DNA of 64,000 nucleotides. Origin: Bacillales bacterium UBA784 (GTDB taxonomy: Bacteria; Bacillota_I; Bacilli_A; RFN20; CAG-288). Shown here piece after piece: positions 56,082-63,884 of the stretch. The translations under genes and the position numbers were made by a program. Location: the NCBI GenBank assembly GCA_002297045.1, contig DBJE01000013.1:272509-336508 (forward strand). Reading direction: 5' to 3'. The notes beneath the pieces are model-generated. The model was not told where the DNA came from, ran no database searches, and saw nothing but the letters and a program-made list of their open reading frames with translations. How positions within the stretch are numbered: position 1 is the first letter of the stretch; each line of letters starts with the position of its first letter.

Positions 56082-56540
56082 ATGAAAGTACTCAGGAAAC
56101 GTGATTTACGTAAGGTAGGAAAGCGCGGAGAAGTCGTCGATGTCTCCGACGGATATGGGGCGAATTATATTATTCCTTACGGATACGGCGTCCTTTTCAC
56201 CAAGGAAGCACAGGCTGATTTTGCCAAAGAGCAGGCTGAAGAAAAGCGTCAGCATGACCTTAAGGTGGAGGAGGCGAAGAAAATCGCCAAGCAGAGGGAG
56301 AATATCACTCTCGAGTTTTCTGCTCCGGCCGGCCGGAACGGCGACAGGATCGGAACCGTGTCCTTTAAAAAAGCAAGTGAAGCGAGGAAGAAGCAGTACG
56401 GCATCTCTCTGAACAAGGAAAGGCTCATCGACAAAGACGTCCTTGTGAACGGCTTTGGACTCACTACCTTGAAAGTCGATCTTTTTGACGGAGTGATTGC
56501 CTCTCTTCGCATCCATGTTTCGTTAAAGGAGAACAAGTAA
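56082..56540 (+). CDS. rplI: 50S ribosomal protein L9
   Basis: MKVL.K.D....GK.GEVVDVSDGYG.NY..P.G matches the L9 N-terminal domain. The 152-aa size and position upstream of dnaB fit. Confidence 0.9.
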   Translation: MKVLRKRDLRKVGKRGEVVDVSDGYGANYIIPYGYGVLFTKEAQADFAKEQAEEKRQHDLKVEEAKKIAKQRENITLEFSAPAGRNGDRIGTVSFKKASEARKKQYGISLNKERLIDKDVLVNGFGLTTLKVDLFDGVIASLRIHVSLKENK

Positions 56541-56541
56541 C

Positions 56542-58008
56542 TTGGCGGACGATTCCCTTGACCTGAACGAGGTTTCCGTTCTCGGCAACATTCTTCTTGA
56601 TTCTAGTTCGGATTCAAGGCTGACGGCCAATCAGGCCTTAACTCCGGATGATTTCTCTGATTCCCGTAATCGGATTATTTTCGAGACGAGGCAGGAAAGG
56701 ATGCTGACGAACATCAAGCCGGATTTGGCTACCTTGAAGGATGCCTTGACGAACAAGAAGGTTCTTGATGCCGCCGGAGGAAGGGAATACCTTCAGCTGA
56801 TTCTGGCTAAGACCGTTTCCATTACCTCGATTGAAAACTATGTCAATGCTATCCGCGACCGCTCCCTTCTCAATAGTTTTCTTGGTCTTCTTAGCCGGAT
56901 TGAGAGCGATGCGAAGACCAAACCGATCAGCGATGTCTCTGATTTCATCGGTAAGGCCGAGGTGGATATTCTTGGCATTACCCATCAAAGACGGATTAAG
57001 CAGGCTTTTAAGCTTAGCGATATCAATGATCAGCTTGTGACAAAGCTTGTCAGGCAGTCCGAGCGGTTCAAGAAAGAAGGAATCCGTCCTGACGGAATAA
57101 CGGGAATCCGGACAGGCTATGGGGATCTTGACAAACTGACCAAGGGTTTCCAGAAAGGGGAAAGGATTATTATCGGTGCCCGTCCTTCCGTCGGAAAGAC
57201 GGCTTTCGCCCTTAACCTTCTCTATAACATTGCCAGTCAGAATATCCCGGTCATCTTCTTTTCCCTTGAAAGGAATGCCGTGTCGATTAACAAACGTCTT
57301 CTCGAAAGGGCTTCGAGCCTTTCCGCTAGCGAAATCGACTCAAGGATGTTTCAGCCTGGTTCCACCCAGTCCCGTCTTCTTGTCGAAACAAAGGGCGATC
57401 CCGACCTTACTTCTAAGGTAAAAAGGCTTCAAAACGGAAGGAACACTCTTCGGAACAGGCCCTTTTATATCGACGACAACACCTCTTCCAAGAGGAACGA
57501 CATCGTCACCCGCTGCCAGAAGCTGAAGAACCAGATTAACAATGTCGGACTTATTGCGATTGACTATCTTGGCCTTATCACTTCTCCGAGCAAACGTGCA
57601 CAGGAAAACCGTCAGTCCGAAGTGGCAGAGATTTCCCGCCAGATTAAGCAGATGGCCAGAGACCTTGACGTCCCTGTCATCGCCTTAAGTCAGCTTTCCC
57701 GTGAGTCCGCTAAACGGAACGCCGATCATACTCCTCAGCTTTCCGATTTGCGTGATTCCGGTACCATTGAGCAGGATGCCGACAGGATTTTTAGGATCGA
57801 CCGTCCGGATTACTTCAATAAGCCAGGTGTTCAGGCGGAAGGAGGACAGCCGCCGAGGAGGGAACAGCAGCAAAGCCCCTTTTCCAAGACGATTTTAATG
57901 CTACAGAAAAACCGTAACGGTCCTATAGGAAACTGCGCCTTTAGGTTCGATAAGGAGCATCAGCGCTTCTCGGCCCTGGACGAGAATGCCGATGAAAGTG
58001 CCTTCTGA
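56542..58008 (+). CDS. dnaB: replicative DNA helicase (DnaB/DnaC-Bsu type)
   Basis: TTG start (AAGGAG upstream). Motifs are GARPSVGKTAFALN (Walker A), FSLE(AGG), IAIDYLGLI, EISRQIKQMARDLDVPVIALSQLSRE and LRDSGTIEQDAD. Confidence 0.9.
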   Translation: MADDSLDLNEVSVLGNILLDSSSDSRLTANQALTPDDFSDSRNRIIFETRQERMLTNIKPDLATLKDALTNKKVLDAAGGREYLQLILAKTVSITSIENYVNAIRDRSLLNSFLGLLSRIESDAKTKPISDVSDFIGKAEVDILGITHQRRIKQAFKLSDINDQLVTKLVRQSERFKKEGIRPDGITGIRTGYGDLDKLTKGFQKGERIIIGARPSVGKTAFALNLLYNIASQNIPVIFFSLERNAVSINKRLLERASSLSASEIDSRMFQPGSTQSRLLVETKGDPDLTSKVKRLQNGRNTLRNRPFYIDDNTSSKRNDIVTRCQKLKNQINNVGLIAIDYLGLITSPSKRAQENRQSEVAEISRQIKQMARDLDVPVIALSQLSRESAKRNADHTPQLSDLRDSGTIEQDADRIFRIDRPDYFNKPGVQAEGGQPPRREQQQSPFSKTILMLQKNRNGPIGNCAFRFDKEHQRFSALDENADESAF

Positions 58009-61866: not shown

Positions 61867-61868
61867 TT

Positions 61869-63884
61869 ATGGAAACAATCGATAAAGAGAAAAAACGGGT
61901 GGAGGAACTGACAAAGCTTCTTAACCAGTACAACTATGAATATTACGTCCTAAACCAGTCCTCCGTCTCCGATGCCGAGTACGATCAGCTCAGGGAAGAG
62001 CTTCAGCGTCTGGAAAGACAGCGTCCGGACCTGAAAGACCGCCTTTCCCCGACTACCCGGGTAGGGGGCGGCATCACTTCCGAGTTCAAGAAAGTCACCC
62101 ATAAGAAATACAGGCTTTCGATAGCCGATGTTTTCAACGAGGACGAACTGTATGATTTCGATGCCTCAAGGCGGAAGACCACGGGATTACGTCAGATTGA
62201 GTATAGGTGCGAGGTGAAAATCGACGGACTTGCCTGCTCCCTCAGGTATGAGGACGGCGCCTTAGGAATCGCCTCGACACGAGGCGACGGGAGCGTCGGG
62301 GAGGATGTGACACAGAACGCCTTGACGATTCCGACTATCCCAACCCATATTAAGGACCTGCGCGAACTTGAGGTCCGGGGTGAGATCTATAGGCCGAAAG
62401 CCTCTTTGGCCGCCTGCAACGAGGAACGGAAGAAGGAAAATCTTCCTTTGTTTGCCAACTGCCGCAATGCGGCAGCGGGGAGCCTACGCAATCTCGACTC
62501 CCGGGTCACGGCAAGACGGAAGCTTAACGCCTTCTGGTACTATGTCCCAGATGCCCTTGCCCTCGGTTTTAAAAAACATTCCGAGGCCCTAGACTATATT
62601 TCTTCTTTGGGCTTCCGTACTAATCCTGAGCGCCGGCTTGTCCATGGGATAGAGGAAGTCATGGAGTACGTCCATGAATATCACGAAAAGCGGCCTAGCC
62701 TTGACTATGATATCGACGGACTTGTCATCAAGGTGAACGACAGGACCCTTTATGATACTATCGGCTACACTAGGAAGACCCCGAAGTGGGAAATCGCCTA
62801 TAAGTTCCCTCCGGAGGAACAGATTACGAAGGTCAACGACATTGAGATATCTGTCGGCCGGACGGGAAGAGTCGCTCCGACGGCGGTCCTTGAGCCAGTC
62901 CGTGTTGCCGGTTCCCTGATTAGCCGGGCAACTTTAAACAACGAGGATTATATCAAGAGGAAGGATATCCGCATCGGCGACTATGTCTCCCTCCATAAGG
63001 CAGGGGACGTCATTCCTGAAGTCGAGAAAGTCATTCTGAGCCGGCGGACAAAGGATGTCATGCCTTACTTCTTCCCTAAGGAATGTCCTTATTGCCATCA
63101 TGAGCTAGAAAAAATCCAGGGACAGACCTATTGCGTCAACGATAAGTGCCCTTCCCGGAAGATCAATAATCTGATTTTCTTTGTTTCCGACGGAGGAAGG
63201 GATATCGATGGAATCGGGGAGAAGCTTGTCGAATCCTTGTTTAACGAAGGACTTGTCCGGGAAGTGAGCGACTTCTACCGCCTTAAGGACCACAAGGAAG
63301 ATTTAAGGAGGAGGGACGGAATCGGGGAGAAGACGTGTAATACCCTGTTTGCCAATATCGAGAAGTCCAAGAAGAACGACCTTTATAGGCTTCTCTGCGG
63401 ACTGACTATTCCGCTTGTGGGAAAGAAGACGGCAATTGTCCTTGCCAACCATTTCCAGAATCTCGACCGCCTTAGGCAGGCGAAAAAGGAGGAGCTCTCC
63501 TCCCTTAGGGATGTCGGGGAAATCACCGCCGATAAAATCCTTGGCTATTTTGCCGATGAGGAACATAGGAAGGTCATCGAGGACTTACGTAGCCTAGGAC
63601 TGAACTTCTCTCTCCTCCATCCTCTTGCCGAGGCAAAGGAGAACTTCTTCAAAGGAAAGAAGTTCGTCCTCACCGGCGCCCTTTCCGTCAGCCGGGAAGA
63701 GAGGACAAAGCGGATAGAGGCGCTAGGAGGGAAAAGCTCTTCTTCCGTCTCCAAGGCTACCGACTTTGTCTTAGTCGGAGAAGACCCCGGTTCAAAATAT
63801 GACAAGGCAAAGAAACTCGGAATCCGGATCTTTACCGAAAAGGAGATTCTTCCTCTTCTTGCCGAGGCGGAGAGCAGGCAGTAA
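61869..63884 (+). CDS. ligA: NAD-dependent DNA ligase LigA
   Basis: KIDG adenylation site (CEVKIDGLA), TRGDG, EVRGEIY(AGG)[11 protein letters not shown], the Zn-finger CPYC...C...C, HhH repeats, and the C-terminal BRCT ([10 protein letters not shown]...). Confidence 0.92.

Follow-up and report, generated by a model that had tools for sequence, protein, structure and literature searches.

AGG as a probable methionine codon in a 64-kb genomic window from an uncultivated lineage of gut Bacilli

Introduction

The 64,000-nucleotide stretch of bacterial DNA analyzed here (the window) raises the question of which amino acid its AGG codons specify. An initial annotation, made from the sequence alone, had noticed that in the genes between positions 56082 and 63884, among them those for ribosomal protein L9, a DnaB-type replicative helicase, a PcrA/UvrD-type helicase and the DNA ligase LigA, AGG falls at positions where the encoded protein families carry methionine or another hydrophobic residue, and had proposed that AGG is read as methionine instead of arginine. 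All 13 triplets that it listed indeed read AGG, and each lies in frame 0 of the gene to which it was assigned. The proposal is supported by the residue composition of alignment columns, codon exchange within the source clade, gains in Pfam scores, the amino acid composition of the encoded proteins and phylogenetic placement, and on this comparative sequence evidence AGG is very probably a methionine codon throughout the window. The initial annotation had also noted, correctly, that a computational screen with Codetta predicted this reassignment in uncultivated Bacilli (Shulgina & Eddy, eLife 2021, PMC8629427). It is one of the first five reassignments of a sense codon to be reported for bacteria, and the species from which the window derives is among those published. 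The reassignment of AGG is therefore already known here, and its detection is a rediscovery of what the 2021 report describes for the same species. Recognizing it from raw sequence was a correct and non-trivial call that adds no new biology, and only the dominance of AGG over ATG and the inflated methionine content described below are new.

Results

Codon usage and source of the window

Codons were counted in the 47 long open reading frames (ORFs) of the window, which comprise 19,261 codons. Per 10,000 codons, AGG is used 284 times and ATG 74 times (2.84% versus 0.74% of codons), and AGG lies far above any single arginine codon (AGA 69, CGT 71, CGC 50, CGA 24, CGG 90). With first codons excluded, 547 in-frame AGG codons are found against 105 ATG codons over the whole window (1..64000), so that AGG would make up 84% of internal methionine codons. 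Among the public gene starts between 46.7 and 64 kb (n = 13), 11 are ATG and 2 are TTG. The published values for the clade are 209-235 AGG and 59-69 AUG per 10,000 codons, and the published system (genus Enterosoma/UBA7642) shares with the window the codon, its meaning, the usage signature and the species (Shulgina & Eddy 2021). A small difference concerns the arginine codons: CGG slightly exceeds CGT in the window, whereas the paper names CGU as the preferred codon, reporting for this species CGU 134 versus CGG 103-111, as counted in Pfam-aligned columns.

The composition of the encoded proteins points the same way. With AGG read as arginine, PcrA would contain 9.6% arginine and 0.8% methionine, compared with 4.4-5.7% and 1.8-3.1% in its orthologues; with AGG read as methionine, its arginine content returns to a normal 5.5%.

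Window bases 1-12613 match contig DJDW01000070.1 of NCBI assembly GCA_002431755.1 at 98.7-100% nucleotide identity, and a 419-kb contig deposited at the European Nucleotide Archive (ENA; ERZ27300223) at 100% identity. Assembly GCA_002431755.1 is that of Bacillales bacterium UBA5914, assigned in GTDB to UBA7642 sp002297045, and is among the eight genomes for which AGG was inferred to encode methionine (Shulgina & Eddy 2021). We hold with high confidence, jointly for the placement and for the reading of AGG, that the window belongs to species sp002297045, within the AGG-to-methionine subclade of GTDB UBA7642, a genus of uncultivated gut Bacilli in order RFN20 and family CAG-288 that now bears the name Candidatus Enterosoma. 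The codon profile of the window, with a GC content of about 0.46 and high CGG usage, fits this species. Exact-protein look-ups located genes of the window on several independent assemblies from ENA, Logan and NCBI, and JGI/IMG holds an identical L9 protein together with near-identical DnaB and LigA proteins (same 90%-identity cluster).

Relatives were collected through a LigA scan of a species-representative genome collection, which yielded 80 loci. The three closest (L006, HGM10888; L007, UBA4682; L008, UMGS1247), with LigA identities of 88-89%, show the same skew as the window, with 263-280 AGG and 39-77 ATG per 10,000 codons. Usage is ordinary in the next eight loci (L009-L016; LigA identity 60-76%; AGG 22-124, ATG 205-279) and in all of the more distant Bacilli loci (medians AGG 26, ATG 239). 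In a neighbor-joining tree of PcrA and LigA, built from 812 columns free of AGG codons and gaps, the window and L006-L008 form a monophyletic AGG-rich group, whose sister is a group of standard-code genomes with normal usage (L009-L013). Because the AGG codons of these sister genomes align to arginine or lysine in the window, the change of code is placed on the stem lineage of the AGG-rich group. Nucleotide identity between the window and L006-L008 is only 72-73%, so that among the four reassigned genomes in this comparison the window species stands furthest from the others. One locus of the standard-code sister group (L013, CAVJFW010000027.1) uses AGG 124 times per 10,000 codons and has 17 AGG codons in LigA, aligned to arginine or lysine of the window. 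Since this genome uses AGG fairly often, AGG is not uniformly rare in the closest standard-code relatives, an observation that bears on the question of whether AGG first had to vanish before it could be reassigned.

Comparison of AGG sites with near and distant relatives

In all alignments AGG was masked as X, in order to avoid a bias towards arginine or methionine. Against the near outgroups, the AGG codons of the window (553 cases) face methionine 195 times, isoleucine 75, leucine 68, valine 42 and arginine 12 times, and window ATG codons (102 cases) face methionine 32 times. By comparison, arginine stands opposite the remaining five arginine codons (AGA and CGN) in 57% of near-outgroup cases. 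Seen from the outgroups, ATG is met by window AGG 195 times and by window ATG 32 times, a split of 86:14 that equals the overall split between AGG and ATG.

The same picture is obtained when each site is counted once, by its majority residue in the near outgroups. The 108 AGG sites have majority methionine at 38, leucine at 16, isoleucine at 14, valine at 8, lysine at 6 and arginine at 3. Methionine is the majority residue at 8 of 20 ATG sites and at 4 of 226 isoleucine-codon sites, and arginine at 96 of the 172 sites with other arginine codons. In Fisher tests at this level, AGG sites differ from arginine-codon sites (p = 5.6e-23) and from isoleucine-codon sites (p = 4.8e-17) and are indistinguishable from ATG sites (p = 0.80). 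The initial annotation had proposed a tabulation of AGG columns as a check; with near outgroups the columns are mostly methionine or hydrophobic, with an arginine majority at 3 of 108. An empirical substitution likelihood likewise ranks methionine best, ahead of leucine (-472 nats), isoleucine (-523) and arginine (-814); these values are inflated by the use of eight non-independent outgroups, although their ranking agrees with the site-level tests.

At the 23 sites of PcrA and LigA with at least 90% arginine in at least 10 standard-code relatives, the window has CGG at 12, CGC at 5, CGT at 3, CGA at 2, AGA at 1 and AGG at none, and at the four sites with at least 90% methionine it has AGG at all four. 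Codon-by-codon comparison of the window with L006-L008 yielded 22 replacements of window AGG by ATG and 19 of window ATG by AGG (41 swaps in total), as opposed to 0-1 per genome of AGG by any arginine codon; CGG swaps freely with CGT, AGA, CGA and CGC in the same comparison. Of the nine codons that are one base away from AGG, ATG alone acts as its selective equivalent. With respect to both near and distant relatives, and across the window, AGG is used synonymously with ATG and with none of the arginine codons. AGA and the CGN codons remain arginine: they fill all 23 conserved arginine sites and interchange among themselves, not with AGG.

The residues carried by relatives at the AGG sites first noticed were assessed from column composition in standard-code relatives (61-72 for PcrA, 77 for LigA) and, for the other genes, from solved structures (PDB alignments). 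Methionine was found where it had been claimed at DnaB residue 244, in the FSLE-x motif (57271-57273; Met in the DnaB proteins of Geobacillus and of E. coli type), at PcrA residue 66 (59752-54; 71 of 71 relatives) and at LigA residue 175 (62391-93; 73 of 77), and PcrA residue 621, in the motif (M/L)-EEERRL (61417-19), is methionine in 43 of 72 relatives and isoleucine or leucine in the remainder. The positions claimed as strictly hydrophobic also proved to be so: DnaB residues 415 (57784-57786) and 418 (57793-57795) of DAD-x-IF-x are I/L and L/I in structures, PcrA residue 56, preceding TFTNKAA (59722-24), is isoleucine in 69 of 71 relatives, L9 residue 5 (56094-56096) is phenylalanine in Geobacillus and B. 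subtilis L9, RnfD residue 291 is methionine (7zc6_D) or isoleucine (8ahx_D), and residue 187 of the thioesterase is isoleucine or valine in solved thioesterases. Two of the claims went too far. PcrA residue 388 (60718-20), described as an invariant methionine, lies in a variable hydrophobic column (I20 F14 L11 T9 V8 M7), and of the two AGG codons in PcrA motif V, the claim holds for residue 584 (61306-08; Met in 57 of 72) and was overstated for residue 582 (61300-02), where relatives carry V, T or I. Conversely, two AGG sites that had escaped notice, at LigA residues 82 (62112-62114) and 444 (63198-63200), are methionine in 77 of 77 relatives each.

Pfam scores across the window

To extend the comparison beyond the 56082-63884 region, AGG was retranslated as methionine in ten proteins outside it, spread over 7.9-41.6 kb of the window (RnfC1, RnfD1, ApbE, RnfC2, a PfkB kinase, an AMP-binding enzyme, a Na/Pi cotransporter, two ABC exporters and an LD-carboxypeptidase). 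Of the 17 domain families, 16 scored higher in Pfam with methionine than with arginine at AGG, for an overall gain of about 120 bits. When RnfD2, RnfE and RnfA, with 27 AGG codons together, were concatenated, the summed scores were 603.0 bits with methionine, 601.1 with isoleucine, 597.6 with valine, 595.7 with leucine, 581.5 with arginine and 577.3 with lysine. The Pfam RnfD score is 234.7 bits with arginine and 254.0 with methionine.

Alternative explanations

Under the standard code, AGG would be arginine and the proteins of the window would simply carry many unusual arginine substitutions. Translation table 11 does give uninterrupted ORFs, and public databases hold exactly such translations. 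Arginine would then, however, fill invariant methionine positions in DnaB, PcrA and LigA while AGG is absent from all 23 conserved arginine sites and almost never swaps with arginine codons within the clade; the arginine content of the proteins would be about double, and their methionine content about a quarter, of that of orthologues; the Pfam total would lie about 140 bits below that obtained with methionine; and the substitution likelihood disfavors arginine by 814 nats. We regard this explanation as extremely unlikely. An artefact, arising from errors in sequencing or assembly or from a bin that is chimeric or contaminated, could be envisaged for a sequence whose source is a metagenome assembly. 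The same sequence is, however, present at 98.7-100% identity in independent assemblies from ENA, Logan and NCBI, JGI/IMG has proteins of the same 90%-identity clusters that are identical or closely related, and the signal is uniform over the 47 ORFs and common to three other species, which leaves an artefact with a practically negligible probability.

Several observations weigh against the reading of AGG as methionine. At about 65% of AGG sites, the closest relatives with the standard code have a residue other than methionine, mostly L, I or V, with some K, T or R. A crude profile likelihood based on distant relatives (69 Bacilli, PcrA and LigA only) rejects arginine by 92 nats and leaves methionine, isoleucine and leucine unseparated, with isoleucine 13.7 nats above methionine; the Pfam scores of the Rnf membrane proteins differ by only 1.9 bits between methionine and isoleucine. 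A tRNA with anticodon CCU was not found in the window by ARAGORN or Rfam (its tRNAs are Leu(CAA), Pro(CGG) and Gln(CUG)), nor by ARAGORN in 19 related loci, nor in 10 kb added on each side of the window. No protein-level evidence for methionine at AGG was found in the literature up to 2026. Finally, tRNA-Arg(UCU) may misread AGG as arginine at a low level; AGA is still an arginine codon (69 per 10,000), which implies that a tRNA with anticodon UCU must be present. Reassignment of AGG to another hydrophobic residue, isoleucine or leucine, draws on the fact that these score as well as or above methionine with distant relatives only, and in the case of isoleucine on the narrow Pfam difference. 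The lead of isoleucine in the distant profile arises because several AGG sites of PcrA fall in isoleucine-conserved columns, and since distant profiles cannot split methionine from isoleucine or leucine, near outgroups and within-clade exchange were relied upon instead; within-clade exchange separates these residues better than distant profiles do. AGG occupies all four sites with at least 90% methionine, near relatives have methionine at 35% of AGG sites versus 1.8% of isoleucine-codon sites, the AGG profile equals that of ATG, and ATG is the only single-base neighbor that exchanges freely with AGG in the clade. The published whole-genome Codetta inference, from more than 2,200 columns, also gave methionine (Shulgina & Eddy 2021), and isoleucine or leucine is considered very unlikely. 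The remaining alternative is ambiguous decoding, in which AGG would be read mainly as methionine with a measurable fraction of arginine through wobble by tRNA-Arg(UCU). The necessary presence of that tRNA speaks for it, and the possibility was raised by Shulgina & Eddy (2021). Against it, arginine is found in near outgroups at 2.2% for AGG versus 3.9% for ATG sites, with no extra arginine or lysine signal, and AGG stands at buried, invariant methionine positions where arginine would be damaging; ambiguous decoding retains a small but appreciable probability next to the reading of AGG as methionine.

Dominance of AGG and inflated methionine content

With AGG read as methionine, this residue accounts for 3.4% of the internal codons of the window ORFs, and it reaches 4.9% in PcrA (versus 1.8-3.1% in orthologues) and 3.3% in LigA (versus 2.1-2.6%). 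Given this inflated total, and the large share of AGG sites that are not methionine in near relatives, some AGG codons must be recent gains; the raised methionine content fits the larger mutational target of an amino acid with two codons. The ratio of AGG to ATG is 5.2:1 among internal codons of the window and 3.4-7.1:1 in L006-L008 (start ATGs counted). Base composition does not explain this dominance, since the ratio of G to T is well below 1 at four-fold degenerate third positions (0.59 in the window, 0.37-0.55 in L006-L008); it is 0.70 in intergenic DNA. The dominance suggests that selection favors AGG or disfavors internal ATG, or that mutation is biased in a context-specific way. In the original description the frequency of AGG is mentioned only as a "rebound" (Shulgina & Eddy 2021). 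It is possible, although we put it forward only tentatively, that selection and not mutation bias is responsible, with the recruited tRNA(CCU) having become the principal elongator methionine tRNA and ATG drifting towards a codon specialized for initiation. Were this so, the methionine codons for initiation and elongation would be on the way to separating naturally, though in part only, and the second methionine codon would have raised methionine content about 1.3-1.7 fold in orthologous proteins.

Decoding of AGG

Judging from the literature, AGG would be decoded by a tRNA with anticodon CCU that descends from tRNA-Arg(CCU). The tRNA(CCU) of the clade has A73, G2:C71 and C3:G70, lacks A20, and adjoins tRNA-Arg(CCG), which is also the context of tRNA-Arg(CCU) in outgroups (Shulgina & Eddy 2021). 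This retained genomic context argues for a change of charging identity, and not for a methionine tRNA whose anticodon had mutated. The methionine identity elements (A73, G2:C71, C3:G70 and the loss of A20) would let methionyl-tRNA synthetase (MetRS), whose anticodon-contacting residues are reported as unchanged in the clade, charge this tRNA, while an arginine-type tRNA(UCU) would read AGA. ATG continues to serve as a start codon and at a minority of internal positions, and AGG is, on this reading, the main internal methionine codon. According to the source data of the 2021 study, both tRNA(CCU) and tRNA(UCU) are present in GCA_002431755.1, and in a later re-confirmation nine genomes carry only the form of tRNA(CCU) with a 5-bp anticodon stem.

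The window does not contain tRNA-Arg(UCU). A metagenome scan with a tandem pattern (CCU anticodon loop, T-loop, G70 C71 and A73, followed by a CCG anticodon loop) returned three matches, all in organisms with normal ATG usage, and none of the 86 matches to a single-tRNA version of the CCU pattern in viral contigs had clade-like codon usage. The supplement of a 2026 NAR paper contains no tRNA sequences. As the initial annotation had stated for experimental confirmation in general, no proteomic or biochemical proof was found in the literature up to 2026, and papers of 2026 still cite AGG-to-methionine as a computational prediction only.

Comparison with known reassignments and consequences for public translations

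Other bacterial reassignments of arginine codons were reported by the same screen, namely CGG to tryptophan (Anaerococcus, Ca. Onthovivens), CGG to glutamine (Peptacetobacter) and CGA/CGG to tryptophan (Absconditabacteria). In these cases the reassigned codon is rare, as in an early stage, whereas AGG constitutes 2.8% of codons in the window and is the dominant codon of its new amino acid. Green-algal and metazoan mitochondria, as cited by Shulgina & Eddy (2021), likewise have their arginine AGR codons affected, with AGG captured by methionine among other AGR reassignments; the mitochondrial cases differ from the window in being organellar, with tiny gene sets, independent lineages and other tRNA mechanisms. 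In E. coli, the decoding of AGG has been set apart from that of AGA by engineering (Mukai et al. 2015, as cited by Shulgina & Eddy 2021), which shows that a dedicated CCU tRNA can read AGG independently of AGA. Unlike the window, this system is synthetic, needed lowered expression of tRNA(UCU) and is not a natural genome-wide recoding.

The warning that standard-code translations of this DNA are wrong at AGG is borne out by the public records: the table 11 versions of these genes stored by NCBI, ENA, Logan and JGI carry arginine at every AGG, catalytic-motif positions included, that is, at about 2.8% of residues. Wrong residues in this proportion lower profile scores and would mislead structure prediction, homology search and expression in a standard-code host.

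Gene content of the window

The genes of the 56082-63884 region and the two AGG sites noted elsewhere are listed in Table 1.

Table 1. Genes between positions 56082 and 63884, and AGG sites of the window in two other genes
Feature	Coordinates	Strand	Remarks
AGG in RnfD, second Rnf cluster, motif F-x-ATDPVTSP (aa291)	19949..19951	+	
AGG in acyl-ACP thioesterase, motif NHH-x-NN (aa187)	51999..52001	+	
rplI (ribosomal protein L9)	56082..56540	+	5 AGG; Pfam Ribosomal_L9_N/C on identical public protein
dnaB-type replicative helicase	56542..58008	+	18 AGG codons
metallo-beta-lactamase-fold hydrolase	58008..58766	+	4 AGG; Pfam Lactamase_B_2 on public gene call
rlmH (SPOUT methyltransferase)	58763..59239	+	PF02590; ATG start at 58763
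tRNA-Gln(CUG)	59305..59379	+	ARAGORN and Rfam; ordinary tRNA, not an AGG decoder
pcrA/uvrD-type helicase	59557..61866	+	32 AGG, 6 ATG codons
ligA (NAD-dependent DNA ligase)	61869..63884	+	19 AGG, 3 ATG codons

A 92-aa ORF on the minus strand (59227-59505), called as a gene in public assemblies, runs antisense across the tRNA-Gln gene, has no Pfam match and is probably a spurious call. Just past the right end of the window, downstream of ligA (12119-20333 of L089/L090), lie gatC, gatA, gatB, tgt, queA and queH, followed by parB and parA; together with rplI-dnaB, these genes suggest that the window lies near the chromosomal origin.

Two complete paralogous Rnf-type clusters are encoded at 7900-12165 and 17770-23701, each with RnfC, RnfD, a G-like ORF, RnfE and RnfA; the second also includes an RnfB-like Fe-S protein (23255-23701). 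Between them (12224-15354) lie two ApbE flavin-transferase genes and a 767-aa Ser/Thr-rich lipoprotein-like ORF. Lipoprotein-type signal peptides ending in a lipobox cysteine were identified in seven ORFs (2143-2613, 6249-7841, 15452-17755, 25900-28017, 34911-36545, 42732-44714 and 44863-46695), six of them large and Ser/Thr-rich and one (2143-2613) short, at 156 aa. These ORFs, which gave no Pfam match in standard translation with AGG as arginine, look like lineage-specific surface proteins. At 28334-32731, an AMP-binding enzyme, an MBOAT acyltransferase and a 362-aa membrane-anchored ORF follow one another in a set that resembles a dltA/dltB/dltD D-alanylation cluster.

A 449-aa ORF on the plus strand (4789-6138), the longest at this place, is rich in ATG and was considered as a gene with a different code. 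This idea was dropped, as the N-terminal half of the ORF overlaps a minus-strand gene with a NusG_II domain (4672-5196), which leaves the TMEM164-like C-terminal half as the sole part that looks real. A publicly called, Lys-rich ORF of 163 aa on the minus strand (5263-5754) is probably spurious.

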